64,000 bases of DNA from a bacterium (GTDB lineage: Bacteria; JAAXHH01). The stretch is from NCBI GenBank assembly GCA_963665755.1, contig OY762445.1, forward strand, positions 146,224-210,223, in the 5' to 3' direction. The position numbers and the translations under genes were made by a program. Shown here piece after piece: positions 1 through 21,766 of the stretch; the first letter of the stretch is position 1, and each line of letters starts with the position of its first letter. The notes beneath the pieces were generated by a model. That model made no database searches and was not told where the DNA came from. It worked only from the letters and a program-made list of their open reading frames with translations.

Positions 1-396
1 AGGATGGCCGACCCCTTTGCTGCGCTGACGGTCAACGTCATGGGCGAGGGCCAGAACCACGGCTGGCATTTCGACGAGGCCGAGGCTACAACCACCCTGA
101 TGGTACAGGCGCCCGAAGATGGCGGCGTCTTCGAGTACGCACCGAACGTCCGTCCGGAGGAAGATGGCGCATACGATACCGTGGACCGGGTGCTTCGCGG
201 CAGCTATCCGGACATACGTACGCTCGCCGTGAAACCCGGTACGCTGATCCTCTTCGTCGGCTACCATTCCATGCACCAGGTGACACCGGTCAAGGGCCCG
301 GTTACCCGGTATGTCGCCACGTTCTGCTACAAGGACCGGCCCAATGTCTGCAACAGCCCCGAGGTACAGAAGCTGTTTTACGGGCGAACGGCATGA
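1..396 (+). CDS. 2OG-Fe(II) dioxygenase family protein, C-terminal fragment (gene starts upstream of window)
   Basis: ORF 4-396 open to the window edge. Iron-binding pattern H-x-D (GWHFDE) plus a distal His (YHSMHQV) in a beta-rich segment. Resemblance to PF10014-type (IDO/ArpA-like) hydroxylases is from memory only. Confidence 0.45.
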   Translation, partial: RMADPFAALTVNVMGEGQNHGWHFDEAEATTTLMVQAPEDGGVFEYAPNVRPEEDGAYDTVDRVLRGSYPDIRTLAVKPGTLILFVGYHSMHQVTPVKGPVTRYVATFCYKDRPNVCNSPEVQKLFYGRTA

Positions 397-405
397 CGAA
401 GGGAG

Positions 406-1734
406 ATGAGCAGAAGAAAGTCGTTTTTGGAGATTGCTCAAGGACCAGGAGGTGGACCATTGCACGCAGTGATCATTGGGAACGGCGTAACAGGGGTAAC
501 AGCCGCCACGCGGCTCAGACAGCTTCAGCCCGACTGGAAGGTCTCGCTGGTTTCGGGTGAATCGGCCTTCCACTATTCCCGCCCCGCCCTCATGTACATC
601 TTCATGGGGCACATGACCTACGAGGCGACGAAACCCTTCGAGGACAGTTTCTGGCGAGACCAGCGGCTGGACCTGGTCCGAGACTGGGTCACCGCTATCG
701 ATATCGATGACAGGCAACTGGTACTTCACCGGAACGGTCGCCTGCCCTACGACCGTCTGCTGATCGCCACCGGCGCCAAGTCGAACAAGTTCGGATGGCC
801 GGGTCAGGACCTCGATGGCGTCCAGGGCCTGTACAACCTGAAAGACCTGCATCAATTGTATAAGAATGCAGAACGGACCAGCAACGCGGTCATCGTCGGC
901 GGCGGGCTGATCGGCCTCGAACTCGCCGAGATGCTGCATTCGAGGCATATCCACGTCACGTTTCTCATACGCGAGCCTTCCTACTGGTGCAACATCCTGC
1001 CCATGGAAGAATCGGGTATGCTGAACCGATTGATAGAGGAGCAGGGCATCGGCCTGATCAAGGAGACCAACCTGAAGGAAATAGTGGACGACGGCACAGG
1101 AAAGGTCGAAGCGGTCATTACCGAGTTCGACGACCGGATCGATTGCCAACTGGTCGGCCTGACGCCAGGTGTTTCGCCCAACACGGACCTGATCAAGTCG
1201 ACGCCTATCGAAACAGGTCGGGGCGTCCTGGTCGACAACTCCTTTCGAACGAACATACCCGACATCTACGCGGCAGGGGACTGCGCGGAAATCGTCAGCC
1301 GCAACGGGGGACGCAATCTGATCCAGCAGGTCTGGTACACAGGCAAAAAGCAGGGCAAGGTCGCCGGCGAGGTGCTGGCCGGACAGGATACGGAGTACGA
1401 CCCCGGGATCTGGTACAATTCGGCCAAGTTCTTCGATCTGGAGTACCAGACCTATGGCATGATTCTGAATACGCCCCAGCCCGGAGAGCGCCACCTTTTC
1501 TGGGAACATCCATCCCATCGCCACGCCGTCCGCGTAGTCGGCGTCGACGGGTGCATCAAGGCCTTCAATTTCATGGGTATACGGGCCCGTCACGAAGTAT
1601 GTGAGCGGTGGATTGCCGAGCGGCGTACCGTGGAGTACGTCCTGGACCACCTGGAAGAAGCCAACTTCGATCCGGAGTTTTTCGTCCGCCACGAGTCGGA
1701 GATCGTTCGCTCATTAAAGGAGCAACTCGCATGA
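406..1734 (+). CDS. FAD/NAD(P)-binding pyridine nucleotide-disulfide family oxidoreductase (ferredoxin/rubredoxin-reductase-like)
   Basis: AAGGGAG SD 5-6 nt upstream of ATG. Two Rossmann motifs (VIIGNGVTGV; VIVGGGLIGLELA). AAGDCA FAD-motif. 10-bp gap to the upstream oxygenase gene. Confidence 0.8.
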   Translation: MSRRKSFLEIAQGPGGGPLHAVIIGNGVTGVTAATRLRQLQPDWKVSLVSGESAFHYSRPALMYIFMGHMTYEATKPFEDSFWRDQRLDLVRDWVTAIDIDDRQLVLHRNGRLPYDRLLIATGAKSNKFGWPGQDLDGVQGLYNLKDLHQLYKNAERTSNAVIVGGGLIGLELAEMLHSRHIHVTFLIREPSYWCNILPMEESGMLNRLIEEQGIGLIKETNLKEIVDDGTGKVEAVITEFDDRIDCQLVGLTPGVSPNTDLIKSTPIETGRGVLVDNSFRTNIPDIYAAGDCAEIVSRNGGRNLIQQVWYTGKKQGKVAGEVLAGQDTEYDPGIWYNSAKFFDLEYQTYGMILNTPQPGERHLFWEHPSHRHAVRVVGVDGCIKAFNFMGIRARHEVCERWIAERRTVEYVLDHLEEANFDPEFFVRHESEIVRSLKEQLA

Positions 1735-3185
1735 GTACATCGCCCGCTGTACCGACGTTGATCGATCCGGAAACCATCTCGTACTTCTACGACGAGGAAG
1801 CCGAAGGGTTCGGCGAGCCCGAGTCCGCGGCGGAGGCGCCCAGGAACCCGGGCATGATGGTTTCCGCCGGCGTGATCGGGCTGGGTTTCCTCGCGCTCGT
1901 CGTATCCCTGCTCGGTATGCCGCTCTCCGGCGCCTGGACGCCCTTCCTGCTGTCCTTCGGCCTGCTGTCTGTCGGAACCATCGGTTACGTCTGGTTCACG
2001 TACAAGGACACGGTGCCCGGCATCAAGCACGACGGCATCATGTTCGGAAACACGACACACCGCGGCGCCATCGCCTGGGCGCTGGGTATCGCGCTCACCG
2101 GGTTCTACGTCGTACTGTACTGGTGGCCCGAATACCTGTCCCGTGCCATCGCGCTCGTTGAGCCGCTGTCCCAGGTCCTGGCGGGGCAGCCGGCGAACCA
2201 GTGGTTCCTATACGGGTTTCTCTACACGATGGCCGTGGTGCTCTTCGGATTCCGCATGTTCATGCGGTACCGCCACAACCGCTATCACATCATCCGAACG
2301 ATTTCGGTCATGTTCTTTCAACTGGTCCTGGCCTTCGTCCTTCCCCAGTTCCTCCGCGCGCTGAACGAACCGGAGTTCTACTTCAGCTACTTCTGGCCCC
2401 TGAAGTACGATTACCTGTTCCCCGGCACCGTGGATTACCTGGTCAACAGCCCGGGCGCCCTGGGTTCGTTCATGGTGTTCTGGGGGGTGGCCTGCACGTT
2501 TATCGCCACGCCCGTGCTGACCTATTTCTACGGCAAGCGGTGGTACTGTTCCTGGGTATGCGGCTGCGGCGGGCTCGCCGAGACCCTCGGCGACCCCTGG
2601 CGGCACCTGACGCCCAAATCGACCGTATCGTGGAAAATCGAACGGGCGATCATTTACGCGGTGCTCCTGCTCATCATCGCAACGACAGCCGTGCTCTGGG
2701 TGAGCAGCACGTCCGAGGGCGCGCTGAGCGCCATTTCCGCTCCGTTGAAACAGTGGTACGGTTTCTACATCGGCGCGGTCTTCGCCGGGGTCATCGGCGT
2801 GGGGTTCTATCCCGTCCTCGGCAACCGGGTCTGGTGCCGCTTCGGGTGCCCGATGGCCGCGGTGCTGGGCATCATCCAGCGCTTCTTCTCCCGGTTCCGA
2901 ATCACGACCAACGGCGGCCAGTGCATGTCCTGCGGTAACTGCACGACCTATTGCGAAATGGGAATCGACGTGCGGGCCTATGCGGAGCGCGGCGAGAATA
3001 TCGTCCGATCTTCCTGCGTGGGATGCGGGGTCTGTTCGGCCGTTTGTCCCCGAGGCGTGCTCAAGCTCGAGAACGGCATGTCCCACGGAGACCGCTACCC
3101 GGGGTCCGACAAACCGCTGAGCGCTTTCTCCGAGGCCGTCAGCAAGGGCGCCAGGGTCTACGGCGACCGCGATGGTTACGTATAG
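1731..3185 (+). CDS. membrane-bound polyferredoxin, NapH/MauN/RdxA-like (4Fe-4S binding)
   Basis: ATGA start/stop overlap with the upstream reductase, and an AAGGAG SD. Multiple TM helices. Two C-x3-C-P loop motifs (WVCGCGGLAE, WCRFGCPMAAV). C-terminal CMSCGNCTTYC and CVGCGVCSAVCP ferredoxin motifs. The ORF-track start at 1608 lies inside the upstream gene and is rejected. Confidence 0.75.
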   Translation: MSTSPAVPTLIDPETISYFYDEEAEGFGEPESAAEAPRNPGMMVSAGVIGLGFLALVVSLLGMPLSGAWTPFLLSFGLLSVGTIGYVWFTYKDTVPGIKHDGIMFGNTTHRGAIAWALGIALTGFYVVLYWWPEYLSRAIALVEPLSQVLAGQPANQWFLYGFLYTMAVVLFGFRMFMRYRHNRYHIIRTISVMFFQLVLAFVLPQFLRALNEPEFYFSYFWPLKYDYLFPGTVDYLVNSPGALGSFMVFWGVACTFIATPVLTYFYGKRWYCSWVCGCGGLAETLGDPWRHLTPKSTVSWKIERAIIYAVLLLIIATTAVLWVSSTSEGALSAISAPLKQWYGFYIGAVFAGVIGVGFYPVLGNRVWCRFGCPMAAVLGIIQRFFSRFRITTNGGQCMSCGNCTTYCEMGIDVRAYAERGENIVRSSCVGCGVCSAVCPRGVLKLENGMSHGDRYPGSDKPLSAFSEAVSKGARVYGDRDGYV

Positions 3186-3217: not shown

Positions 3218-4123
3218 CTACCTGACCAGGAAAATAACCACCGCGACCGTGACGATGCTGCAGATGGTGGACAGGAACACGGCGTTGGCCGCAAAATCCT
3301 CCCGGCTGCCGAATTCCATCGCGATCAGCACGGTATTGATCGCGGTTGGATAACTGGTGGATACAACCAGGACCGGGGCGATCCTGGGATCGATGTCCAA
3401 CAGGAGCACGAGGCCGTAGCCGATCAGGGGAGAGACCAGCAGACGGCAGACCAGGGACGCCAGGCTGGCTTTCCACTCCAGGGTGATGGGAGTCCGGGCC
3501 AGCTGCATGCCCAGGGTGACCAGTGCCATGGGGACGAGCGCTTCGGCCAGGTACTCGATCGGAAGCCAGATAAAGCCCGGGAGTTGCAGGCCGTAGTTCC
3601 GGATCGCGAAGGCCAGGATCAGCGCATAGACGAAGGGCATCTTGAAGGACTGCAGGAAGGCTTTCCGGGCGGACAGGCGTCCAATCGAAACGAAGAACAG
3701 CCCCAGGGTGAAAACGAGAAAGTTCTGGACGGCCAGGACGATGGACTGGACGGCCAGGCCCAGGGAGGGAAAAGCCAGTTCGCTGGCCGGAAAGCCGTAA
3801 TTCCCGCTGTTGTAATACATGACGGACAGGCTGAAGGCCTGTTTCATGTCATTCCGGTACCGCATGACCAGGGATCCGATCACACTGAGCACGTAAAGCG
3901 CGACCAGCATGAGCAGACAGAATACGGCGGTGTCCCATACGAATTCGGAGGAGAGCTCAGACTGGGTGAGGGATACGACGAGCGTAGCGGGCATGACCAG
4001 GTACAGCAGTATCCGCGTCAGGGCCTGCAGGTCGAACCGCCATTTTTTCTGGAACAGGTACCCGAGCGAAATGAGCACGAAAATCGGGGCGATGATGTCG
4101 ATCAGGATGTTCAGGAATGGCAT
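3218..4123 (-). CDS. AEC (auxin efflux carrier / malate permease-like) family transporter
   Basis: About 300-aa polytopic membrane protein; N-terminal MPFLNILIDIIAPIFVLISLGY pattern typical of the AEC family. Confidence 0.65.
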   Translation of the reverse strand: MPFLNILIDIIAPIFVLISLGYLFQKKWRFDLQALTRILLYLVMPATLVVSLTQSELSSEFVWDTAVFCLLMLVALYVLSVIGSLVMRYRNDMKQAFSLSVMYYNSGNYGFPASELAFPSLGLAVQSIVLAVQNFLVFTLGLFFVSIGRLSARKAFLQSFKMPFVYALILAFAIRNYGLQLPGFIWLPIEYLAEALVPMALVTLGMQLARTPITLEWKASLASLVCRLLVSPLIGYGLVLLLDIDPRIAPVLVVSTSYPTAINTVLIAMEFGSREDFAANAVFLSTICSIVTVAVVIFLVR

Positions 4124-10550: not shown

Positions 10551-11951
10551 ATGGTGGACAGATCCTACCTGTTCGATGACGACGCCATGCGCGACTTTAT
10601 CGTAAACGGCTACCACGTGATCAACGTGGATCAGCCGGTTGCGCTCCACGACGGGATTTACGAGAAGACGAAGGCGATCATCGACGATGACGGGAATCCG
10701 GGAAACAACCTGTTGCCGCGTGTGCCCGAGATCCAACAGGTCTACGACGATCCTGCCGTTCAAGGCGCACTGACGAGTCTGCTCGGACCGGACTACGTCA
10801 TGCACGCTCACCGCCACCCGCACGTGAACCCGCCGAACAGCCGTGGAGGCAACTGGCACAAGGACAGTTACTGGGGTTACAGCAAGGTGCGGGATCACCA
10901 TCCGCGGTGGATCATGGCCATGTACTACCCCCAGGACACCCCGGTTGAAATCGGACCGACGGGGGTAATACCCGGCAGCCACTACTTCGAGTCCCGCGAA
11001 GAGACCGTCGGAGGGAACGGGTCGGTCCCAGATGGATTCCCCGCGAGCGGCAAGGCGGGAACCATTACCATCATACACTTCGACCTCTGGCACCGGGCGT
11101 TTCCGAACGCAACGGACAAGGTCCGCTATATGATGAAATTCCAGTTTACGAGAATGTCAGAGCCGAACCACCCCTGCTGGAACAATCAACGAGACGAAAT
11201 CGACCTGGGCGACCTGTCGGACGATCCCCGGAGCGCCATGTGGCGGAACATGTGGCACTGGCTTGCCGGAAACGGGTCTGCGGGAACCAGGCGGGAAGGC
11301 GAGGAACACGTCGAAGCGCACGCCCAGGACCTGACGCATGAACTCGAACAGAAGCGTTTGCACGCGGCCTATAGCCTGGCGGAGTGCGGAGAATCCGCGC
11401 TACCGCATCTCCTCGAAGCACTGCAACACGAAAGGGATGAGGTCCGGCGTGAAGCGTGCTACGGACTAAGCGCGCTGGGTACCGCCGCCGTCGAACCGCT
11501 GGTATCCCTGCTCGGACACGAAAACGAACGCGTCAGGGGTTACGCGGTTTACGCCCTTGGAGACATCCGGCACCACAACCCTTCGGTTACGGGGCACCTC
11601 GCGGGTCATACAGACGACCCATCGCCTTTTGTCCGGCAGAACGTGGCCGATGCACTGGGCCAGATCAGGCTGGCTGCGGATTCGTCCGTTCCCGCGCTGA
11701 TCGGTATGATGAAGGACGTGGATGAGCAGGTTCGGTCCAGAACCGCCTACGCGCTGGCCCGATTCGGAGTCGAGGCTCAGACGGCCATTCAAGACCTTGC
11801 GGATGCGTGCTACGATGAAAACCGGTATGTACAGGGGCATGCCGCCGTTGCACTCGAACAAATCGGCACGCCGGAAGCCCTGCGCGCGCTGCTGCACTGG
11901 CTGCAGGCCTCGCGGTGGTGTCCCCTGACGACTGCGAAGAGCACGTTTTAG
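10551..11951 (+). CDS. phytanoyl-CoA dioxygenase (PhyH) family domain fused to C-terminal PBS-lyase-type HEAT repeats
   Basis: AAAGGAGAAG SD. N-terminal about 220 aa with H-x-D (NWHKDSY) and a distal His (FDLWHRAF) in PhyH-like context. C-terminal about 200 aa with at least five repeats of the x-VR-x-x-A-x-x-ALG-x-IG type (EVRREACYGLSALG, ERVRGYAVYALGDI, PFVRQNVADALGQI, EQVRSRTAYALARFG, RYVQGHAAVALEQIG). Confidence 0.75.
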   Translation: MVDRSYLFDDDAMRDFIVNGYHVINVDQPVALHDGIYEKTKAIIDDDGNPGNNLLPRVPEIQQVYDDPAVQGALTSLLGPDYVMHAHRHPHVNPPNSRGGNWHKDSYWGYSKVRDHHPRWIMAMYYPQDTPVEIGPTGVIPGSHYFESREETVGGNGSVPDGFPASGKAGTITIIHFDLWHRAFPNATDKVRYMMKFQFTRMSEPNHPCWNNQRDEIDLGDLSDDPRSAMWRNMWHWLAGNGSAGTRREGEEHVEAHAQDLTHELEQKRLHAAYSLAECGESALPHLLEALQHERDEVRREACYGLSALGTAAVEPLVSLLGHENERVRGYAVYALGDIRHHNPSVTGHLAGHTDDPSPFVRQNVADALGQIRLAADSSVPALIGMMKDVDEQVRSRTAYALARFGVEAQTAIQDLADACYDENRYVQGHAAVALEQIGTPEALRALLHWLQASRWCPLTTAKSTF

Positions 11952-12036: not shown

Positions 12037-14007
12037 CTACCAGTCGTGTATCATGTGGCCCTGTCCCGGATAGAACAAGGCATCCACAAAGAACGACAGA
12101 ACGATACCCAGCGTGTAACCGAGCAGGACGCCAAGGAAGAACCGCTGACCCGTGCGGTAGGTGCTGGTCCCGACCTTCAGCAGAATGAACTTGGCGAGCC
12201 ATGCGAGGAAGACGGACAGGATCGAGTCCCGGATATTGCTGGCGAAACAAATGGCGAAGCCCACCGGGGCGAGGGGCCACCAGACCAGCCAGTGCCGGAG
12301 TTTCAGCAGCAACAGGAAGGTCGCCGCGCCAGCCGCCATGAACCAGGGCTCGTTCTGACCCAGGGACAGCGGGTTCTTCATCCAGGTTACGATCTCGTCG
12401 TAGTAGTTCTTGTTGAGCCCGTCGAACGCCCCGCCTCCGAAGTTATAGGCTCCAATCGCATAGCCCGACTGTATCGAGTAAGCCAACGCCGTGACCATGC
12501 TTACGAGAAAGGTGGCGGCGAGTACGAGCAGCAACCCTTTCTTCCTCGGCCAGAATCCGTCCGCCAGGCGATCTGCCAGCACGACCGAACCCATACCCAG
12601 CCCGCGCCAGTTCCGCGCATACGCGCTGGCCAGGCCCAATGCCGTAAGGCTCGGCGCGGATACGTTCCCTGAACCCAGGGACAGCACCGTGATCTGGTGT
12701 GCGTTCACGGGCAAATCGAGGAACACCACCCCTGTTTCGGCGATCACCTTTGTCGTGCCGAAGTATAGAATGAACAGAAAGGCCAGGAACACCGCCATCA
12801 CCGAAAACGCCAGGCCGGACTGGTACAGCCATGCGCAGATAAATACGGATCCGAGCAGGAACCCGATCACGGCGGTCCTGTAGGATACGAGTTCCTTTGT
12901 ATCGTCCAGTCCGGAATCCCGCCCCATCGCTTTCTTGACTACGCCCGCCAGGTGCCGCCTGGCGGCCCAGAGACTGTAACCCACGTACACCAGGAATCCG
13001 CCGAAAAACTGTGCGTTGACGCCGCCGCTGCCGCCGGGACCGCTGCTGGCCGTGTTGAGTCCTATGTAATTCAGTGCGCCGATTTCGAGCAGCCCCAGCA
13101 TGAAGAAGACCCAGATGCTCAGCAGGATATCTACGTTGATAAAGTAGCCGAAGCCGAGCATGTAGGGGCTGATACGCAGGGGAATGGAGGGGAACATCGG
13201 ACTCAGTTGGAGCGGAGTCTCGAAGAAGGTGCCGACGGGGAGCTGCGGTACGATATGGGCGAAGGACACGATATTCCAGAGTGCGATGGCCAGCGCGAGG
13301 ACGAACCCGATCTGGAACAGGCGGTCATAGACCAGTTTCGGCCAGCGACCGGGCGACTGGTCCCCGGTTATGAGTTCGAGGGGTACCTGGACGAGGGGAA
13401 AAGTTAGCCGCTCGTACTCCACCCACTGTTTTCTGAATATGGTGGCCACGCAGGCGCCGACGACGAATATCGCGACGAAAAAGCTCATCCACCAGGCGAC
13501 GGGGATGATCCACGGGGACCAGGGTATGGCGCCTCCCGGAGGCAGCCCTTCGTAAAACCATCCCATGGCGTTGTTCTGGTTGCTCGCCACGAGCCATTCC
13601 GGCAGAAAGGGGTGGAAGAGCTCCACCCACTGGTTTTCCGGCTGGGCGAAGTAAAAGGGCGTCGATATGATGGTCAGGAAGTACGACACGAAGGCCTTGC
13701 CGGGTATGAGGCTCGAAATCAGCAGGATGCAGAAGATCAGCGCGAGTTCTCTGCCGGTGAAGGCGGCCCGTTGGTACATACCGCGTACAAGAGGGTTGTA
13801 CACGAAGGTGACGAGCAGAAAGAGAGCCAGGGCGGAAATGGGCAGGTGGGCCACCGACATGCGGGACGTGTGCAGGATATAGGTCCCGTACGTCACCCAG
13901 ATGTTGAGGATGATGGCCAGGACCAGTCCCGTGGCGAGGGACCTCGACGTGATCACGGAGGTTGGCGGGGTTTCCCTTGTCGGTATATGCTTGGTTGTGT
14001 CAGTCAA
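12037..14007 (-). CDS. large polytopic membrane protein of unknown function (paralog of 47334-49337)
   Basis: 656 aa with at least 14 predicted TM segments. Shares an ERLTFPL motif and overall architecture with the 674-aa protein at 47334-49337. Immediately downstream (63-bp gap) of the sulfatase gene. Confidence 0.7.
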   Translation of the reverse strand: MTDTTKHIPTRETPPTSVITSRSLATGLVLAIILNIWVTYGTYILHTSRMSVAHLPISALALFLLVTFVYNPLVRGMYQRAAFTGRELALIFCILLISSLIPGKAFVSYFLTIISTPFYFAQPENQWVELFHPFLPEWLVASNQNNAMGWFYEGLPPGGAIPWSPWIIPVAWWMSFFVAIFVVGACVATIFRKQWVEYERLTFPLVQVPLELITGDQSPGRWPKLVYDRLFQIGFVLALAIALWNIVSFAHIVPQLPVGTFFETPLQLSPMFPSIPLRISPYMLGFGYFINVDILLSIWVFFMLGLLEIGALNYIGLNTASSGPGGSGGVNAQFFGGFLVYVGYSLWAARRHLAGVVKKAMGRDSGLDDTKELVSYRTAVIGFLLGSVFICAWLYQSGLAFSVMAVFLAFLFILYFGTTKVIAETGVVFLDLPVNAHQITVLSLGSGNVSAPSLTALGLASAYARNWRGLGMGSVVLADRLADGFWPRKKGLLLVLAATFLVSMVTALAYSIQSGYAIGAYNFGGGAFDGLNKNYYDEIVTWMKNPLSLGQNEPWFMAAGAATFLLLLKLRHWLVWWPLAPVGFAICFASNIRDSILSVFLAWLAKFILLKVGTSTYRTGQRFFLGVLLGYTLGIVLSFFVDALFYPGQGHMIHDW

Positions 14008-14069: not shown

Positions 14070-15419
14070 TCAGGCAGACTGTCGTTCCCGCCATTCGACC
14101 TCCATGGGATCGGGGATGGCGTAGGGTTTGACGCGTTGTTCGTGCAGCCACTCCGACAGGTAGTGATCCATGCGTTGCTGAATCTCCGGCCGTTCCCGGG
14201 CCAAGTTGTACGTCTGATTCGGGTCGTTACGCATATCATACAAGGCCACCGGATCGAACCGGTAACCGAAGTCATCGTACGTCCTGACCATGAGATGGCC
14301 GGGTGTCCGCACCGCCCGTTGCAGCGTGTACAGGCCGTGACCCCAGACCAGGTAGTCGTGCAGCTGGCAGCGTCCGGTCGCAAGTCCTTCCGCGAAAGAC
14401 CGGCCGTCATAGTATTCCGGTACTTCCCCGCCAATCAGGTCGATCAGCGTGGCGCTGAAATCCACATTGTACAGCAGGTCGTCACTAGAGGATCCTGGCG
14501 GCGTAGTCCCCGGCCACTTGATGATCAGCGGGACCCGGTGTATGCATTCGTCGGCGCAGACGTGATCCCCGTAGATGCCGTGCTCTCCCATGGCCTCGCC
14601 GTGATCCGCCGAGATAATGACCGCCGTGTCGTCCAGGCCGCCCAGGGCGTCCAGTATCTGCTCCACGTGGTGGTCGGTGTAGCGGATCTCCGTGTCGTAC
14701 CCGGTCACCATGTGATTCAGATCGCGGGTATCCCGGATGGCGTCCGGCATGTTCGGCGTGGGACTGGGCCGGTCGTGGGGAAAGAGGTGGGACGCGGTGA
14801 ACCAGCCGTCGATGTCCTGGTGGCCGCGGATCGTCTCGTTGTCCGGCCAACTCACAGCCGGCGGATGGGCCGCCATGCGGTCGAACCGGTCGCGGGGCGC
14901 TTCGTAGACCCGGTGCGGGTCCCAGTAGTTGATGTACAGGAAGTAATCGTCCCGGCCGCCGTTCGCGGCGATCCATTTCAGTACGGCTTCGTTGACCTCG
15001 TTCGCCGTCTCGTCCCCCGTCTTCAGGTTGGGCGAATGGAACTCCGACCAGCCCAGCCCGAACCAGGTCGCGCAGTGCCGGGTGGGGAAGTTGGAGAAGC
15101 AGACCGTGTCGTAGCCGTGTTGGCGCAACTTTCTCTGAACCAACTGGTTCCGTTCGTCGGGTCCGCCGTAGCGCTGCTCCAGGATGTGCAGCTTGGAAGC
15201 GGGACCGCCGTGGGTCACCACGCCGTTGTTGATCCCGAAACGGCCGGTTATCCAGCCGTGCCGCGAAGGCATGCAGGGCGAATCCGCGCAGTAGTACCGG
15301 TCGAACCGCATCCCCTGCGCGGCGATTTCATCGATGGCGGGCGAGGTGGGCCGGCCGTAGCCGTAGCAACCCAGGTGGTCGGGCCTCAGACTGTCGATGT
15401 CGAAATAGACGATGCGCAA
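14070..15419 (-). CDS. Cys-type sulfatase (alkaline-phosphatase superfamily), no signal peptide
   Basis: DSLRPDHLGCYGY metal-binding N-terminus. C-x-P-x-R FGly motif (CMPSRHG). No N-terminal signal sequence. Confidence 0.8.
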   Translation of the reverse strand: MRIVYFDIDSLRPDHLGCYGYGRPTSPAIDEIAAQGMRFDRYYCADSPCMPSRHGWITGRFGINNGVVTHGGPASKLHILEQRYGGPDERNQLVQRKLRQHGYDTVCFSNFPTRHCATWFGLGWSEFHSPNLKTGDETANEVNEAVLKWIAANGGRDDYFLYINYWDPHRVYEAPRDRFDRMAAHPPAVSWPDNETIRGHQDIDGWFTASHLFPHDRPSPTPNMPDAIRDTRDLNHMVTGYDTEIRYTDHHVEQILDALGGLDDTAVIISADHGEAMGEHGIYGDHVCADECIHRVPLIIKWPGTTPPGSSSDDLLYNVDFSATLIDLIGGEVPEYYDGRSFAEGLATGRCQLHDYLVWGHGLYTLQRAVRTPGHLMVRTYDDFGYRFDPVALYDMRNDPNQTYNLARERPEIQQRMDHYLSEWLHEQRVKPYAIPDPMEVEWRERQSA

Positions 15420-15457: not shown

Positions 15458-16729
15458 CTACGCCGCAACGGCCTTGTCGATGATTACCTTCATCTTGTCG
15501 CCGTGTTTGTGTCGGCTGGCGGCTTCGATTAGGGCTTCGATGGGTAGAAACCCGTTGTCCTGCAGCCAGTGGGCTATGGCGGCCAAAGCGGCGCCTTTCG
15601 GTCCGCCCGTCTTTCTGAAATCCCCGGTCACCACGTTGGACGGACCGGGCGGACCGAGCGGACCGGGACACCCTCCAAGCTCGGTACCAAGCTTCTTGTC
15701 CGCGATCACCAGGGTATGGCCGCCGATGCGGGACCGCACCTTGTCCAGCCCATCCTGCGATATGACGATCATGATGTCGGGACAGTCGATCCCGGTGTAA
15801 TGGATGGGGTTCCTGGAGAGGATGACTTCCGCGACGGAAAACCCCGTGCCGATCGTGATGGGGTAGTCGCCCTTCTTGGTGGCGGACAGGCCGGCCGTAA
15901 TGCCCGCGGTGGACAGCAGGTCACCCGCGGACTGGATGGCCTCACCGGCCGAACCTGCGACGATGATCTCCAGGCGGCCGTCCAGCGGCGCATCGCATGT
16001 GCGTTCGATTGGTTTAAGGGCGTCAAAGAGGGACTGGCCCATCAACCGGTGCGGCCGGGATACAGGCCGCTGGTTCCTTGTTACCACGCTCTCGTAGTCC
16101 GCCGTATCATGGAGTTCCTGTACTTTCCTCATTCCGTATGCGGGACACATCTCCACGATTTCGATGAGGGAGAATCCAGGTGTGGACAGGGCCTCCTTCC
16201 AGAGCTCGGAAGTGTCCTTGCCGATGAAAGTCCGCGCGGTGTACGCCGCGCCGGCGTTGTGCGCCAGGGCGCAGATGTCGTATCCTGGCACGGCCGATTC
16301 CGGTCGTTCCGGTTCCTTGAACTCGGTGGAGGACAGTCCGCTGGTCTGGCCGCCCGTCATCCCGTAAACCATGTTGTTCTGAACCACGAGGGTGAGATCC
16401 AGGTTGTGCCGTGCGGCTTCGAGCAGGTGCTGCAGGCCGATCGTGGCGCCGCCGTCGCCCTGCAGGGCGATGATCTTCTTCTCCGGATGCTCCAGGCCCA
16501 TGCGGATGCCCATGGCCAGGGCGACCGCCCGGCCGTGGAGCCCGTGAATGGTGTGGCAGGTCAGGAGCGGATCCACGAGCCCCGTGCAGCCGATGTCGCT
16601 TACCACGATGACGTCGAGGGGGTCCACGTCCATGTCCGCGAGCGCCTTGCTCATGGATTTGTTGGCGACGGTATGACCACAGCCCGGGCAGTAGGGCATT
16701 TTCAGGTCATTCAGGATGGTTTCCTGCAT
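15458..16729 (-). CDS. 2-oxoacid:ferredoxin oxidoreductase beta subunit (TPP-binding) fused to gamma domain
   Basis: N-terminal YCPGCGH with a GDGG TPP motif. C-terminal about 190 aa POR-gamma-like domain. 19-bp overlap with the alpha gene. Confidence 0.8.
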   Translation of the reverse strand: MQETILNDLKMPYCPGCGHTVANKSMSKALADMDVDPLDVIVVSDIGCTGLVDPLLTCHTIHGLHGRAVALAMGIRMGLEHPEKKIIALQGDGGATIGLQHLLEAARHNLDLTLVVQNNMVYGMTGGQTSGLSSTEFKEPERPESAVPGYDICALAHNAGAAYTARTFIGKDTSELWKEALSTPGFSLIEIVEMCPAYGMRKVQELHDTADYESVVTRNQRPVSRPHRLMGQSLFDALKPIERTCDAPLDGRLEIIVAGSAGEAIQSAGDLLSTAGITAGLSATKKGDYPITIGTGFSVAEVILSRNPIHYTGIDCPDIMIVISQDGLDKVRSRIGGHTLVIADKKLGTELGGCPGPLGPPGPSNVVTGDFRKTGGPKGAALAAIAHWLQDNGFLPIEALIEAASRHKHGDKMKVIIDKAVAA

Positions 16730-17844
16730 TGCCTTACTCCTTCCGCGATCTCCTGCGGGGTGATCATATTGCCGATTTTGTTGACACCGAAGACCCGGCC
16801 GTCCTGACGGTTGCCATAGAGCAGTTCCCGAAGCAGGCCGGCGATATTCTCCTCCACGACGACTATGTGCTCGTATGCGTCAAGCAGTTCGTAGATACGG
16901 GGCGGTACCGGCAGCAGCGTTTTCATGACCAGGAGCGAGACGGAGTCGCCGCCCGAGCGGAGTGAACCGACCGCTTCCCTGGCGGCTTCCGCCGAGATGC
17001 CGTAGGTCAGGATGACCGTATCGGCGTCTTCGACCCGATCGTGGTCGAAATAGGTGTAGTCATCGATACGCTGTTCGATCTTGTTCTTGAGCCGTTCGGT
17101 ATTGCCGAGGGCTTCGGGGCTGTTCTTCTGCGTAATACCTTCCATGTCATGGGTAGATGAATTCAGCCGGACCTGGTGCAGGTCGTTGCCCAGAGGCAGG
17201 AATGGCGGCGCCAGGTTCCCGTTGACCCCGTAGGTCTTGTATTCCCCGTTTCCTTCGAACACGTGGCGTTCCGCCCGCTGCACTTCCCGCAGGCCGGAAA
17301 TGTCCATGTTCTGGTTGGTCATGACCATTTCTTTCGAGGTCAATAACACCACCGGGGTGCGGAGGTTTACCGACGTATGCACGCTGGCGGCCGCCATGTC
17401 CCAGCAATCGTTCAGATTCGAGGGACAGAACACCGGAATCGAATACCCTCCGGAGATGCATCCCCTGAGGAGGAGCAGATCCCCCTGGCCGCCCGTCGTG
17501 GCCGAACCGGTACTCGGCCCGAGGCGCTGGGCGAGGATAATGACCATGGGCAGTTCCATCATGAAGGACATGTTGATGGATTCGATCATCAGGGCGAAGC
17601 CTGGAAAGGCGGAGGCGGTGACGGGAAACACGCCCGAAGACGAAAAACCGGCGGACCACTGCAGCGCGGTGATCTCGTCCGGCGCCTCCAGGGCGATGGG
17701 AATGCGCTGCTTGGCGCCCGCGAAGAGCCAGTTGACGGGCGTGATGGGGTATCCGATGTAGGCGCCCACCCCGGCCCGTGCCATCGCCTCGATGATCAGT
17801 CTGGATCCGTCCAGGAAGACCATGCGTTCACCGGCAGCAGTCAT
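16711..17844 (-). CDS. 2-oxoacid:ferredoxin oxidoreductase alpha subunit
   Basis: KorA/PorA-like N-terminal domain (GYPITPVN) and core domains; 377 aa. Confidence 0.8.
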   Translation of the reverse strand: MTAAGERMVFLDGSRLIIEAMARAGVGAYIGYPITPVNWLFAGAKQRIPIALEAPDEITALQWSAGFSSSGVFPVTASAFPGFALMIESINMSFMMELPMVIILAQRLGPSTGSATTGGQGDLLLLRGCISGGYSIPVFCPSNLNDCWDMAAASVHTSVNLRTPVVLLTSKEMVMTNQNMDISGLREVQRAERHVFEGNGEYKTYGVNGNLAPPFLPLGNDLHQVRLNSSTHDMEGITQKNSPEALGNTERLKNKIEQRIDDYTYFDHDRVEDADTVILTYGISAEAAREAVGSLRSGGDSVSLLVMKTLLPVPPRIYELLDAYEHIVVVEENIAGLLRELLYGNRQDGRVFGVNKIGNMITPQEIAEGVRQCRKPS

Positions 17845-17859
17845 CGTCGTGTTCTCCAG

Positions 17860-19875
17860 TTATTCCTGCATGGATTCCGCCACGATCTCGGCGATATCCC
17901 GGACCCGCATGGGTTCGCCGGCCCGCTTGTTGGCGTCGTTCATCATTCTGGCACAGAAGGGACAGCCCACGGCCAGGGTGTCCGCCCCGGTTTCTCTGGC
18001 CTCCCGGAAGCGATTATCACTGACCGCTTCCCTGCCTTCTTCTTCTTCTTTCCAGACCTGGGCGCCGCCCGCTCCGCAGCAGAATGACCGGTTCCTGCTC
18101 CGGGCCATCTCCACCAGGTTTGGCCCGGCGGCCGCCAGCGCTTCCCGAGGCGCTTCGTACTCGCCGCCGTGGCGTCCAAGATAACACGGGTCGTGATAGG
18201 TTGTCCGCGTCTCATCCTCTCCGTTTACCGCGATCCTGCCGTCGTTCCTGAGATCGGCGATGAGCTGCGTGTGGTGCATGACCTCGTAACGCCCGCCCAG
18301 CGCGCCGTACTCGTTCTTCAGGGTATGGAGGCAATGGGGGCAACCCGTAACGATGCGTTTACGGTCGGCGCCCGCCGCGTTCAACGTTTCGATGTTGCCT
18401 TCGGCAGCCATACTGAAAAGATACTCGTTTCCGGCCCTTCGCGCCAGATCTCCCGTGCAGGACTCGTCGTTTCCGAGCACGGCGAAGTCTACACCGGACC
18501 GGTGCATGACCGTGGCGATGGCCCGTGCCGTGTCCCGGGCGCCCGGGTCGAATGCGCCGGCGCAGCCGACCCATAGCAGCACGTCGTAGTCCGGATTCTC
18601 CGCGACGGTCGGCACCTTGAAATCCAGCTCCCTGGTCCACTCCATCCGGTCTCCGGCCATTTGCCATGGATTGCCGTTCCGTTCGATTCCGGTAAAGGCA
18701 CCTTTCAGTTCATTCGGAAAGGCACTTTCCATCAGCACCTGGTTCTGGCGCATGGAGAGGATGTCGAACATGGGTTCGTTGCCGACGGGGCAGGCTTCGG
18801 TACAGGCCCCGCAGGTCGTACACGCCCACAACGCGCTTTCGCTCATGGCGTAGGTGAGTAGTGGTTCTTCGTCGCCTCCACCCGTCGCCAGGGATTTCAT
18901 GTGATCGCGAAGGTGGAACCGCTTGTTCACCTCGAGTGCAGCGGGAGACAATTCCTTGCCGGTGGCATAGGCCGGGCAGGCGTCCTGGCACCGGTTGCAC
19001 ATGATGCAGGCGAAGGCGTCCGTAATGTGGGTCCGGTTCAGGTCGGTGATCCGGGCGGCGCCGAACTGCTCTACGGTTTCATCCTCTAAATCCAGGGCAT
19101 CCATCGTACCGGGACTGCTTCGATCCGGGGACGTCATCAGGTTGAAGGGGCCCATGAACAGATGGGCATGTTTCGAATAGGGGAACCAGGGCAGGAAGGC
19201 CAGCACCAGCCCGACGGCGATCCACCAACTGGCATGCAGGCCTGCCGTCAGGAATGAAGGTTCCAGATCCGCCCAGAGTCCGGCTGCCAGCGCGGCAACA
19301 GGCTGCCAGGGGTCCGGTCCGTGTATGGCGATGTCGAAAGAAGCGCCCAGCAGCCGGAAACCGACGTGGCCGAGGATGAAAAACCCCACGATCAGGGAAT
19401 CGCGCTTGATGCCGTCCACCGCGCCCGGGTGCAATTTAACCTGCGGAGCGACGTCGAGGGTCCTGGACTTCACGATGAATCGTCGGATGAGCAGGACAGC
19501 CATACCTGCCAGCACCGCCGCGGTCATTAGATCGACGAGGAGCCGATATATCCGCCCGGCGGCGTTCTCGCCCGGGAAAACGAAGCCGGGTACCATGCCT
19601 TCCAGCACGTCTATCAGGTTGACTGCCACGTAGAGGATAAACCCCCACGCGATCGCCGTGTGGGCCAGGGAAACGAAAGGCCGGTTTCGGATCATGTTGT
19701 TCTGGCTGACCATTGCCTTGATCCCGGTCATCAACCGGCCGGCAGGTCTGTCCCAGGACAGGCGCCCCTGGCCTCGCGTAATTATGCGGATCATGCGCCG
19801 AAAGGTGACGGATGCCAGGTACAGCGAGACCACTGCGACGATCGCAAAGAGGATTTTTTCGATGGGAGAAAGCAT
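17860..19875 (-). CDS. membrane-bound Fe-S oxidoreductase: HdrE/DsrM/NarI-like TM domain fused to an HdrD/DsrK-like module (2x 4Fe-4S + 2x CCG); ETF:quinone oxidoreductase-like (EMO-type)
   Basis: N-terminal 5-6 TM helices with conserved His. CIMCNRCQDACP and CTTCGACTEACP ferredoxin motifs. Two CCG-type cysteine clusters (GCAGAF; CCGAGG). Sits directly upstream of etfA. Confidence 0.75.
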   Translation of the reverse strand: MLSPIEKILFAIVAVVSLYLASVTFRRMIRIITRGQGRLSWDRPAGRLMTGIKAMVSQNNMIRNRPFVSLAHTAIAWGFILYVAVNLIDVLEGMVPGFVFPGENAAGRIYRLLVDLMTAAVLAGMAVLLIRRFIVKSRTLDVAPQVKLHPGAVDGIKRDSLIVGFFILGHVGFRLLGASFDIAIHGPDPWQPVAALAAGLWADLEPSFLTAGLHASWWIAVGLVLAFLPWFPYSKHAHLFMGPFNLMTSPDRSSPGTMDALDLEDETVEQFGAARITDLNRTHITDAFACIMCNRCQDACPAYATGKELSPAALEVNKRFHLRDHMKSLATGGGDEEPLLTYAMSESALWACTTCGACTEACPVGNEPMFDILSMRQNQVLMESAFPNELKGAFTGIERNGNPWQMAGDRMEWTRELDFKVPTVAENPDYDVLLWVGCAGAFDPGARDTARAIATVMHRSGVDFAVLGNDESCTGDLARRAGNEYLFSMAAEGNIETLNAAGADRKRIVTGCPHCLHTLKNEYGALGGRYEVMHHTQLIADLRNDGRIAVNGEDETRTTYHDPCYLGRHGGEYEAPREALAAAGPNLVEMARSRNRSFCCGAGGAQVWKEEEEGREAVSDNRFREARETGADTLAVGCPFCARMMNDANKRAGEPMRVRDIAEIVAESMQE

Positions 19876-19933
19876 CGGCGTCCTGCGATCTCGATGTGCC
19901 GCCGAGTGAAGACGCGATGCACGGTGTGCCGGA

Positions 19934-20920
19934 TTACCGGCCCAGCCGTTTCTTCACTTCTTCCGCTATGGCGGGCAGGTAGCTGAACAGGTCGCCGGCG
20001 ATACCGTAGTGAGCGTACTTGTAGATCGGCACGTCGGCGTCCTTGTTGATGGCAACGATCACACGGGCGTTTTTCATGCCCGCCAGGTGCTGAATCGCAC
20101 CGGAGATCCCACAGGCAATGTACAAATCGGGCTGTACCGTTTTCCCGGTCTGGCCGACCTGGTGGGCATAGGGGATCCAACCGGCGTCCACCGCGGCCCG
20201 GCTCGCGCCGAGCGCGCCGCCCAGGGCGTCAGCCAGTTCCCGTACTGGCTGAAAGCCCTCCGGTCCGCCCACGCCGCGGCCGCCGGAAACGATGATGCTT
20301 GCTTCGGTCAGGCTGACCTTGCCGTCCGCGGTCGCGACGGACTCCACCCGGGTTGGGATATCGTCTTCTGCCAGGTCGGCAGGAATGTCGACGGCTTCCC
20401 CGGTCCTGGTTTCATCCCGGGTGGCGGGTTGGAATACATTGCGCCGTACCGTGATGATCCGGTGTCCGGTCCCTGTGAATTTAATGGTGGAAACCAGGTT
20501 GCCCACCAGGGCCGGTCGGACCGCGACCAACTGGTCTCCCTCGATGTGCAGATCCGTGCAGTCCGGCGCCAGGCCCGCATCGGTGAGGGCGGCGACATAG
20601 GCCGTTAGCTCGAGGCCGGCCGTACTCGCCCCCGCCAGGATTACGGTGGGCGGTTCGTTCTCCAGTATCCGCGCCAGCAGTTTCGCATAGGGCTCCACCC
20701 GGTAACGGCTCAGAGAAGCGTCTTCCGTGGTATATACGCGGTCCGCGCCGGCTTCGATGGCCTGCCTTGCGATATCGCCGACCTGGTCGCCGAAAACGAC
20801 GGCGGTCAGGGATCCGCCGAGATCCCCGGCGACTTTCACCGCGGCGGCCATCGCCTGCCAGACGATCGGGTCCGCCTGCCCATCCTCCTGCTCAATCCAT
20901 ACGAGTACGTTGCTTGCCAT
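19934..20920 (-). CDS. etfA: electron transfer flavoprotein alpha subunit
   Basis: Canonical EtfA N-terminal fold and C-terminal FAD-binding domain; follows etfB by 15 bp. Confidence 0.85.
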   Translation of the reverse strand: MASNVLVWIEQEDGQADPIVWQAMAAAVKVAGDLGGSLTAVVFGDQVGDIARQAIEAGADRVYTTEDASLSRYRVEPYAKLLARILENEPPTVILAGASTAGLELTAYVAALTDAGLAPDCTDLHIEGDQLVAVRPALVGNLVSTIKFTGTGHRIITVRRNVFQPATRDETRTGEAVDIPADLAEDDIPTRVESVATADGKVSLTEASIIVSGGRGVGGPEGFQPVRELADALGGALGASRAAVDAGWIPYAHQVGQTGKTVQPDLYIACGISGAIQHLAGMKNARVIVAINKDADVPIYKYAHYGIAGDLFSYLPAIAEEVKKRLGR

Positions 20921-20935
20921 CTGAGATGTTTCCGC

Positions 20936-21727
20936 CTAAATGACCTTTTCTTCCATCAGCCGGTCTACCAGGTGCCTGGCCGCGTCTGCGGGATCGCCAT
21001 CGATCATTTCGACATTCCCCTCCCTGATTGGGGGAAGCTCCGCCTGCCAGGCGACCTTCGAAGCACCGGCACCTACAGCGGACGCATCGAGACCGAGATC
21101 TTCACATTTCCAAATGGGAATACTGGCCCTGGCCGCCTTGCGAATGCCGATGAGGCTCGGGTACCTGGGCTCGTTGATCTCCTTGACGACGGTGATCAGG
21201 GCCGGAAGGCCGCTGGTGACCGTTTCCCGGGCACGCTCCAGCAGGCGTACGGCCGTGATGGTCCGGGCCGACGGGTCCAGGTTCTTGAGATCCGCCACGT
21301 AGGAGATGAGCGGGACGCCGAGCAAGGCCGCGATCTGCACGGCCGTCGCGGCGGTATTGCCGTCTATCGCCGCCCTGCCGCCCACAATCAGATCGAATGC
21401 ACCGATCCTGCGGATGGCGGCGACCAGGATGCGCGCCGAAGTAAGGCAGTCGCTGTCCGCCATGACTGGGTCGGAGACAAGAATGGCTTCATCCACCCCC
21501 ATGGCCAGGGCGGTCTTCAACGCGTCGGCGGCTTCGGGAGGTCCCAGGCAAAGGGCGGTCACCTTGCCGCCATGCTCCTCCCGGGTCTGTATGGCCGTCT
21601 CCAGGGTGTATTCGTCCCAGGGATTGACGATCCGCGGTCCGCCCTCGGCGGAGAGTCTCATGCCGTCCATGGCGGCGGACAACTGTGCCGTATCGGGCGT
21701 CTGCTTCACCAGGGCGATGATATTCAA
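20936..21727 (-). CDS. etfB: electron transfer flavoprotein beta subunit
   Basis: Canonical EtfB sequence features; 263 aa. Confidence 0.85.
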   Translation of the reverse strand: MNIIALVKQTPDTAQLSAAMDGMRLSAEGGPRIVNPWDEYTLETAIQTREEHGGKVTALCLGPPEAADALKTALAMGVDEAILVSDPVMADSDCLTSARILVAAIRRIGAFDLIVGGRAAIDGNTAATAVQIAALLGVPLISYVADLKNLDPSARTITAVRLLERARETVTSGLPALITVVKEINEPRYPSLIGIRKAARASIPIWKCEDLGLDASAVGAGASKVAWQAELPPIREGNVEMIDGDPADAARHLVDRLMEEKVI

Positions 21728-21766
21728 CTAAACGTTTCCTTGTCATCACAGTACGGCTGTACGTGG

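Follow-up and report, generated by a model that had tools for sequence, protein, structure and literature searches.

A gene for a 2-oxoglutarate (2OG) oxygenase that is followed on the same strand by a flavin reductase and a membrane polyferredoxin raises the question of what the two electron carriers are for, as 2OG oxygenases are not known to need a protein reductase. Such an arrangement lies within bases 1-3185 of a 64,000-nucleotide (nt) stretch of bacterial DNA (GenBank contig OY762445.1, positions 146,224 to 210,223; hereafter the window). Three open reading frames (ORFs) were read there on the plus strand, all of which are real: the end of the oxygenase gene (g1), a reductase gene (g2) and a polyferredoxin gene (g3). 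A first-pass annotation had taken them for one translationally coupled operon with a reductase dedicated to the oxygenase. Gene order and sequence in related loci point to a different grouping: on this evidence, g2 and g3 (bases 460-3185) are a self-contained two-protein redox module, and g1 is a lineage-specific neighbor outside this conserved module.

A conserved reductase-polyferredoxin pair

Conservation of the pair in other genomes, which the first-pass annotation had left to be checked, was assessed by scanning one genome per GTDB species for g3. At least 596 species matched, and 80 loci were kept; the collected set that was first analyzed comprised 87 loci, 83 of which have upstream DNA. 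A homolog of g2 was present directly upstream of g3, on the same strand, in all 83. The pair loci span more than 12 phyla; those from GTDB include Latescibacterota, Gemmatimonadota, Dadabacteria/Thermodesulfobacteriota, Planctomycetota, Calditrichia, Ignavibacteria, Rhodothermales, Myxococcota, Armatimonadota, Spirochaetota and many Bacteroidota, among them cultured Hymenobacter, Pontibacter, Cyclobacterium and Solirubrum. More than 8000 clusters of g3 homologs (at 90% identity) were scored, and both proteins keep approximately 55-70% identity across phyla. In the window, the start codon of g3 shares bases with the stop codon of g2, and the same 4-nt overlap was detected in at least 22 related loci. 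The overlap, together with adjacency across phyla, bears out the earlier view that reductase and polyferredoxin form a coupled pair.

The features of the locus are as follows (aa, amino acids; TM, transmembrane helix).

1-396, plus strand: g1 fragment, the C-terminal 131 codons of a HalD/BesD-family 2OG-Fe(II) oxygenase; stop codon TGA at 394-396
397-459, plus strand: g1-g2 spacer of 63 nt, holding a non-conserved ATG at 406 and the Shine-Dalgarno sequence AGGAGG at 446-451
460-1734, plus strand: g2, soluble FAD flavoprotein of the ferredoxin/rubredoxin-reductase type, 424 aa, TTG start
1731-1734, plus strand: ATGA overlap, the ATG of g3 sharing bases with the g2 stop codon TGA
1731-3185, plus strand: g3, predicted inner-membrane polyferredoxin, 484 aa, start ATG at 1731
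2547-2567, plus strand: first Cys motif of g3, C273-S-W-V-C277-G-C279, inside the invariant GKRWYCSWVCGCGGLAET, in the loop after TM6
2835-2852, plus strand: second Cys motif of g3, C369-R-F-G-C373-P, directly after TM8
2922-3050, plus strand: C-terminal 2x[4Fe-4S] ferredoxin domain of g3, with CMSCGNCTTYC and CVGCGVCSAVCP; Pfam Fer4_21, Fer4_9, Fer4_10 and Fer4_7
3218-4123, minus strand: Mem_trans-family gene, convergent to g3, its family named from syntenic loci

To place the start of g2, the sequence joining g1 and g2 was compared between the window and its two nearest relatives (L088 and L089; loci of our collection carry L numbers), whose reductases are 98% and 88% identical to that of the window. 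These relatives read TTT or GTT where the window has ATG 406, a 7-nt indel in L089 breaks the frame that runs from it, and CAGGAGGTGGACCATTG is invariant across all three. Homologs of g2 are 421-431 aa long, covering 96% of the 442-aa reading from ATG 406. Because that codon is not conserved, the homologs are shorter and CAGGAGGTGGACCATTG is invariant, we rejected ATG 406; as judged from the alignment, the conserved start is TTG 460 behind AGGAGG 446-451. The reductase therefore has 424 aa and the spacer 63 nt, not the approximately 10 nt given in the first-pass annotation for the gene junctions, of which the ATGA overlap between g2 and g3 stands. Positions 406-459 look like a plausible 18-codon N-terminal extension of the reductase, a trap for start calling by eye, and this extension is not kept even in the locus with the 98%-identical reductase.

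Of the proposed coupled operon, then, the three same-strand ORFs and the coupling of g2 to g3 remain, and the coupling of g1 does not. A scan of the 98%-identical locus L088 detected no terminator-like and no promoter-like (sigma-70-like) site in the spacer, and the spacer RNA folded no better than shuffled sequence (z = +0.84). Since the spacer matches no terminator or promoter and has no stable fold, read-through from g1 that co-transcribes g2 and g3 is possible in the window lineage. Folding of the 3′ end of g3 gave nothing above shuffled controls, and no tRNA or Rfam match was found in the 64-kb window. Seven Hymenobacteraceae/Cytophagales loci (L055, L068, L070, L072, L074, L080 and L082) carry a conserved ORF of 74-88 aa between g2 and g3 (e.g., L074:7540-7810). 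It was read as two TM helices with a C-terminal poly-His tail (...NLFGKP..HHHHH), and its product may be a metal-binding third subunit.

The reductase matched Pyr_redox_2 in Pfam (1.5e-47). Its nearest NCBIfam models are ferredoxin, rubredoxin, CoA-disulfide and nitrite reductases, all scoring far below cutoff; no named equivalog (HcaD, AndAa, NorW, CoADR or NirB) reached its threshold, with a best score of 145.8 versus 578.8 bits (HcaD 139.5 versus 450, NorW 123.6 versus 392). The best solved relatives in PDB include 1xhc (Pyrococcus NADH oxidase), 8c0z_E, 3fg2 and rubredoxin, putidaredoxin and biphenyl ferredoxin reductases. 8c0z_E is the FAD subunit of a tungsten aldehyde oxidoreductase (AOR); it docks on a polyferredoxin subunit, with which it exchanges electrons. 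Invariant positions in g2 comprise the FAD motif GNGxxG, the NAD motif GGGLIG, GDC, and R171-E/D172 where the NAD beta2 strand ends. The protein reads HYSRPALMY, with no Cys, at the CoADR/Nox-type active-site position, the site where CoA-disulfide reductases and NADH oxidases carry their redox Cys. It thus shows the features of the ferredoxin/rubredoxin-NAD+ reductase class: both GxGxxG motifs, the acidic beta2 residue, the GD motif and no redox-active Cys. The acidic residue that closes beta2 is a classical NADH signature, and g2 is predicted to prefer NADH.

The polyferredoxin matched NapH/MauN (3e-15), Fer4_5 and a 2x[4Fe-4S] dicluster domain, all eight Cys of which are invariant, in agreement with the two clusters noted at first pass. 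The proposed relationship to NapH was also upheld: hhalign aligned residues 259-447 of g3 to residues 91-278 of Escherichia coli NapH (probability 97.6%, E = 4e-12), with both Cys motifs of g3 falling on the first and second CX3CP motifs of NapH. The homologous part runs from the end of TM6 through TM7 and TM8 and holds both Cys motifs along with the 2x[4Fe-4S] domain. C-x3-C-P loop motifs had been noted at first pass; this pattern fits only the second motif (CRFGCP), and the first, CSWVCGC, is C-x3-C-x-C. Among 86 g3 homologs, 13 Cys are invariant, eight in the ferredoxin domain and five near the membrane (C273, C277 and C279 of motif 1, C369 and C373 of motif 2), as are R370 and P374.

Membrane topology, another point that the first-pass annotation had marked for prediction, was analyzed by hydropathy and charge. 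Eight TM helices were predicted in an N-in/C-in orientation with a fitting positive-inside pattern, which would place both termini, both Cys motifs and the ferredoxin domain in the cytoplasm. An AlphaFold2 model (pLDDT 76.6, pTM 0.79) has helices at positions that match the hydropathy profile. For the first approximately 260 residues no known relative was found, the N-terminal half being uncovered by any NCBIfam model or Pfam family, and a comparison of g3 with solved membrane proteins gave no significant match. This N-terminal region has a conserved acidic peptide (DEExxGFxEP), a PGIK loop and an aromatic periplasmic loop, EPEFYFSYFWPLKYDY; conserved aromatic-rich loops occur on both membrane faces of the protein. 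Pfam, motif and topology readings detected no FMN-bind domain, no heme motif and no periplasmic Cys in g3.

Natural fusions and gene neighborhoods

A tblastn search of plasmids with g3 identified a protein of Pseudoalteromonas sp. Bsw20308 (WP_007378779.1, 784 aa) in which residues 80-340 are a Pyr_redox_3 flavoreductase, similar to TrxR/YpdA, and the remainder is a NapH-like polyferredoxin. In BLASTP, the polyferredoxin half is 27% identical to residues 131-444 of g3 (E = 5e-39), and the two share the signatures GK.(W/A)YCSW(V/I)C.CG and WCRF.CP as well as both 4Fe-4S motifs. Five TM segments of the fusion exceed the hydropathy threshold, and they lie between cytoplasmic reductase and ferredoxin domains; a sixth, equivalent to TM4 of g3, is suggested by the alignment. 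This six-TM reading agrees with the predicted topology of g3. The fused form makes up a large family of its own, with members in Pseudoalteromonas, Cognaticolwellia, Parashewanella, Thalassotalea, Alteromonas, Oleispira, Aliikangiella, the BD1-7 clade, Lentisphaeria and Eisenbacteria. An exhaustive phmmer search over 1.84 billion representatives returned 255 clusters at E <= 1e-30; of the longer relatives, ten were checked, and this N-terminal flavoreductase was their sole fusion partner. The polyferredoxin is thus fed by a flavoreductase in both split and fused forms, through two different flavoprotein lineages, and the genomic evidence speaks strongly for the flavoprotein-to-polyferredoxin link as the core function of the family.

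Domain fusion pointed to a donor; gene neighborhoods were examined for a client. Clustering of all neighbors of the 87 loci and a Pfam tally of the nearest ones revealed no universal third partner. In Bacteroidota, a recurrent gene set was found that consists of a synthase-like glycosyltransferase (GT) of family GT2 (approximately 490 aa, PgaC/CelA-like, with a GT21 match), a second GT2 of approximately 230 aa resembling AglJ, dolichyl-phosphate hexose transferase or PpgS, a GT-C resembling GT87 or MptA_B, and a DUF547 protein bearing a signal peptide. Stop and start codons of the pair and this set often overlap or nearly abut; one locus (L034) has the order DUF547, g2, g3, GT2, AglJ-like, GT-C. 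When a locus was counted if one or more members of the set lie no farther than 8 kb away, the tally was as follows.

Bacteroidota split pairs: 27 of 40
Latescibacterota split pairs (GTDB loci): 1 of 2
Unclassified split pairs: 1 of 2
Split pairs of other phyla: 0 of 36
Fusion loci: 5 of 6

The set was detected near two Latescibacterota loci, L009 and L001, the latter a Latescibacterota-like metagenome assembly with a GT-C and a GT2. The fusion loci that have the set come from three phyla. In four of them (Pseudoalteromonas, Alteromonas, L092 and a Lentisphaeria contig) the fusion gene sits in the middle of the set, and an outer-membrane-barrel-like protein replaces DUF547; DUF2064 is present in three. 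An Eisenbacteria metagenome-assembled genome (MAG) has the order fusion, AglJ-like GT2, GT87, TIGR04282 (196 bits versus a cutoff of 134), TIGR04169 AhpD-like protein (173 versus 120), DUF547.

Together these genes make up what looks like an undescribed conserved operon (L090:1033-9656, L091:4277-11877, L092:4230-14056, L094:681-6845 and L095:2675-9421), composed of an outer-membrane-barrel-like or DUF547 protein, a synthase-like GT2, a GT87/MptA_B GT-C, the fusion, an AglJ-like GT2 and DUF2064/TIGR04282. A gene for a TIGR04169 AhpD-like protein, for an ArsM-like methyltransferase or for a radical SAM protein is present in addition at some of the loci. TIGR04282-like, TIGR04169-like and ArsM-like genes also occur near Bacteroidota split pairs. 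Genes of the "arsenosugar-associated" families near relatives score above cutoff in L094 and are phmmer matches in L035, L059, L070, L073 and L080; in the 64-kb window, neither the TIGR04282/TIGR04283/TIGR04169 system nor the GT set was found. A Zixibacteria contig encodes, 6 kb downstream of its pair (L004:15784-17449), a radical SAM/methyltransferase fusion of 833 aa as called, which gave a 94-bit phmmer match to the radical SAM protein of the L092 cluster.

Other neighbors were more restricted. DUF547, a protein with a signal peptide and a C-x4-C-P motif, is the commonest immediate upstream neighbor of the pair (8 of 72) and also accompanies a fusion locus. One pair locus adjoins a metal-uptake operon (Fe_dep_repressor, ZnuA, ABC-3). 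All five Rhodothermales loci (L025, L033, L047, L053 and L060), and these only, have a NAD kinase gene upstream of the pair, in divergent orientation. Three unrelated lineages have genes for MerA/PRK06370-like flavoprotein disulfide reductases at a distance of a few kb from the module (L047:3519-4937, L077:12120-13547 and L094:8582-10426).

Proposed electron path and competing explanations

The reading that we favor, to which we give an even chance, is that g2 and g3 are an NADH-driven electron-input module for a membrane-associated acceptor. Gene structure, domain content, pair conservation, the fusion, the gene contexts and the predicted topology are direct results; the path proposed from them is putative as regards the cofactors bound, the preference for NADH, the direction in which electrons flow, and the five-Cys site with its acceptor. 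NADH would reduce the FAD of g2, which would pass electrons to the two [4Fe-4S] clusters in the C-terminal domain of g3; from there they would reach the site formed by C273, C277, C279, C369 and C373 at the cytoplasmic face of the membrane, where a membrane-embedded or thiophilic acceptor would be reduced. Since the module sits in glycosyltransferase operons of Bacteroidota, Gammaproteobacteria, Lentisphaeria and Eisenbacteria, we think that its usual job would be to provide reducing power for a membrane-associated biosynthetic or metal(loid)-handling step rather than for bulk respiration. A more specific idea, tentative and on balance doubtful, is that the family, a flavoreductase with a CX3CXC/CX3CP polyferredoxin encoded as split pair or fusion, represents an unrecognized and very widespread class of NADH-driven membrane reductases. 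The five-Cys site would then carry out a reductive step on a thiophilic metal(loid) or on a lipid-linked intermediate, in the service of a conserved envelope glycoconjugate or organo-metalloid ("arsenosugar-associated") pathway.

Several points weigh against an electron-input module with such a client. Neither GT nor "arsenosugar-associated" genes are nearby in 38 of the 40 non-Bacteroidota split-pair loci or in the 64-kb window; the client there may differ, and shared ancestry could account for part of the link to GT genes seen within Bacteroidota. The predicted choice of NADH over NADPH is read from a single motif. In addition, known members of the NapH family are discussed as quinol-linked, and a quinone acceptor is conceivable.

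The last point leads to a respiratory alternative, in which the pair is a non-canonical NAD(P)H:menaquinone oxidoreductase with quinone bound in the eight-helix domain, the quinone-pool conduit of the first-pass annotation. Such a reaction is thermodynamically downhill, and the NapH homology, the aromatic-rich loops on both membrane faces and the occurrence of the pair alone, among variable neighbors, in most phyla would suit it. However, a housekeeping enzyme is not expected in the middle of operons of glycosyltransferases with overlapping stop and start codons, as seen across four lineages, and NapH-like proteins have no known quinone site (no solved NapH-like structure was found), so that we consider it unlikely. 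If the five Cys instead bound Cu(II), As(V) or a methylated arsenical, which NADH-derived electrons would then reduce, the pair would be a metal or metalloid reductase like CcoG, a NapH-like polyferredoxin that reduces Cu(II) (PMC7558416). TIGR04282, TIGR04169, ArsM-like methyltransferase and radical SAM genes adjoining relatives agree with this, as do the poly-His two-TM ORF in seven loci and the single locus beside a metal-uptake operon, and the thiol-rich neighbors (AhpD-like and DUF547) would fit a metal(loid) or thiol reductase. The absence of a FixG_C domain, of CcoG among the NCBIfam matches listed and of a ccoHIS context nevertheless makes this reading quite unlikely; moreover, the arsenic-type neighbors are a minority, most of them below family cutoffs in Gammaproteobacteria, and the "arsenosugar" names of TIGR04282 and TIGR04283 are annotation by co-occurrence. 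Export of electrons across the membrane to a periplasmic acceptor, for example the DUF547 protein through its C-x4-C-P motif, has a parallel in NosR, PceC and flavinylated systems, for which transmembrane transfer by NapH-like proteins has been proposed (PMC8238504), and DUF547 is the most frequent upstream neighbor and recurs at a fusion locus. Yet g3 has no FMN-bind domain, heme motif or periplasmic Cys, and because all 13 invariant Cys are predicted to be cytoplasmic, no redox center is predicted in the outer half of the membrane; this version is very unlikely.

The remaining alternative returns to the initial question: the three genes could be one functional unit in which the pair serves the oxygenase, for example by re-reducing its iron. 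Shared strand, a 63-nt spacer and the lack of a detected terminator are in its favor, as is the same gene order in the window lineage, a Zixibacteria contig and a Gemmatimonadota MAG. Nevertheless, g1 homologs occur in only 3 of the 87 collected pair loci (two copies of the one Zixibacteria contig and the Gemmatimonadota MAG) and are missing from 80 of the 83 with upstream DNA, and an opposite-strand ORF parts g1 from g2 in the Zixibacteria contig. A survey centered on g1, covering 13 metagenome loci with g1 homologs, gave the reverse view. A divergent amino-acid permease gene is kept in nine of the ten loci that have upstream DNA; among eight loci with at least 6 kb of downstream DNA, the g2-g3 pair is present in four and absent in four. 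Because the pair usually occurs without g1, while g1 keeps the permease with or without the pair, g1 is, by this gene-order evidence, not part of the conserved module; it appears to belong with the permease and is not a client of g2 and g3. The claim of a reductase dedicated to the oxygenase was thus not sustained, and we regard a three-gene unit as highly improbable.

The oxygenase gene is truncated on its 5′ side by the window edge, and the first-pass annotation had called for its upstream part. Full-length relatives were recovered, 265-303 aa as called, with the divergent permease upstream. The local order in L088 and L089 is amino-acid permease (minus strand), HalD-like gene, reductase, polyferredoxin, Mem_trans (minus strand). 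Even as a fragment, g1 matched Pfam HalD (6e-12, 45.9 bits, cutoff 26), and also 2OG-FeII_Oxy_3; a full-length relative scored 65.5 bits to HalD against the same cutoff. In the BesD/HalD family, which takes in lysine halogenases and hydroxylases, HxG or HxA marks a halogenase and HxD a hydroxylase. Alignment gave H-F-D in g1 where the halogenase structure of HalD (7u6h) has H-W-G; because of this replacement g1 is, as judged from its triad, a hydroxylase-type member, and a halogenase was ruled out. Lysine-type chemistry of this family would suit a partnership with the permease.

Several other features of the window were observed. A 466-aa protein with a PhyH-type 2OG oxygenase domain fused to HEAT repeats is encoded at 10551-11951 (plus strand), and its gene is kept at the same position in L088 and L089. 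A 656-aa protein at 12037-14007 (minus strand) matches DUF6785 (4.6e-115) and DUF6784, and its gene adjoins a sulfatase gene (14070-15419). A redox cluster at 15458-22969 (minus strand) encodes a 2-oxoacid:ferredoxin oxidoreductase (both subunits), an Fe-S protein of 671 aa that has a CCG domain, electron-transfer flavoprotein (ETF) alpha, a probable ETF beta and an acyl-CoA dehydrogenase; by these genes, approximately 12 kb from g2 and g3, the host runs ferredoxin-linked metabolism. As judged from named members of the closest clusters, this host is probably one of the FCB group, such as Latescibacterota or Zixibacteria.

Relation to known systems

NapH-like polyferredoxins are common, and their electron partners and chemistry are poorly understood. 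The g3 family names its donor genetically, as an obligate neighbor and then as a fusion partner. It is present in hundreds of species, and cultured Hymenobacter, Pontibacter, Cyclobacterium, Alteromonas and Pseudoalteromonas make it tractable; it could be an entry point to the role of NapH-type Cys motifs and of the GT/DUF547/TIGR04282/TIGR04169 set. A full-text literature search found no description of the pair, the fusion or this gene set, and no published function for what is a very widespread cassette. For annotation, the gain is that a 2OG oxygenase and permease unit is split from a redox cassette whose reductase start codon is corrected.

Homology to a characterized system, such as Rnf/Nqr, would have explained the pair, and was searched for in Pfam, NCBIfam and PDB. 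No Rnf or Nqr family was among the matches of g2 or g3, and membership was rejected; no NCBIfam model reached its cutoff for either protein. We also rejected membership of g3 in NapH/MauN (TIGR02163, 56.3 bits versus a cutoff of 213; NF007013, 55.4 versus 234), in NosR/NirI (no FMN_bind match; NosR model, 17.8 bits versus 1000) and in CcoG/FixG/RdxA (no FixG_C, CcoG not among the NCBIfam matches listed, no cco genes nearby).

NapH and g3 have in common two helices, a C-terminal 2x[4Fe-4S] domain and, at matching positions, a pair of cytoplasmic Cys motifs. The topology reported for NapH, N-in/C-in with the motifs in the cytoplasm, is the one predicted for g3. The membrane module of NapH is described as four helices (PMC5928378), whereas g3 has eight predicted helices and an N-terminal region of approximately 260 unmatched residues. 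The first motif also differs, being CX3CXC in g3, with no Pro and an extra Cys, versus CX3CP in NapH. No napG/napA or mau genes were found beside the module in the window or the 87 first-collected loci; in place of a napG/napA partner, g3 has an obligate cytoplasmic flavoreductase.

CcoG, which is similar in size to g3, is likewise a membrane polyferredoxin with a Fer4_5-type region, two [4Fe-4S] clusters and chemistry facing the cytoplasm. The FixG_C Ig-like domain of CcoG/FixG/RdxA is missing from g3, and so is a ccoNOQP or ccoHIS context. CcoG, a biochemically characterized relative, carries two Cu sites in addition to the clusters, and its physiological electron donor is given as unknown (PMC7558416); the g3 family, by contrast, brings its own donor.

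A NapH-type membrane core with two Cys motifs is also shared with NosR/NirI, PceC/RdhC and the flavinylated "NapH-like" systems, in which such cores serve as modules that link electron flow to a variety of partners (PMC8238504, PMC5928378). In contrast to these, g3 lacks both a periplasmic FMN-binding domain and an ApbE context, and its partner is a cytoplasmic NAD(P)H flavoprotein.

The fused proteins (approximately 770-810 aa, annotated as "NAD(P)-binding domain-containing protein" or "YccM") have a homologous polyferredoxin half and identical Cys signatures, and their glycosyltransferase neighbors match those of Bacteroidota split pairs. They differ in being a single polypeptide, in the Pyr_redox_3 subfamily of their flavoprotein and in having six helices as read versus eight. 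By analogy, their chemistry would be the same as that of g2 and g3.

For the reductase, the same fold family and motifs are found in AlkT/AlkG, NorW/NorV, putidaredoxin reductase and the FAD subunit of AOR. These two-component ferredoxin or rubredoxin reductase systems share the logic of the pair, with electrons passing from NADH to FAD and then to an Fe-S protein encoded next door. In such systems this partner is a small soluble protein, whereas in g2-g3 it is an integral membrane polyferredoxin. By this analogy, the module probably operates as ferredoxin or rubredoxin reductase systems do, with a membrane protein of the NapH type as the Fe-S partner.

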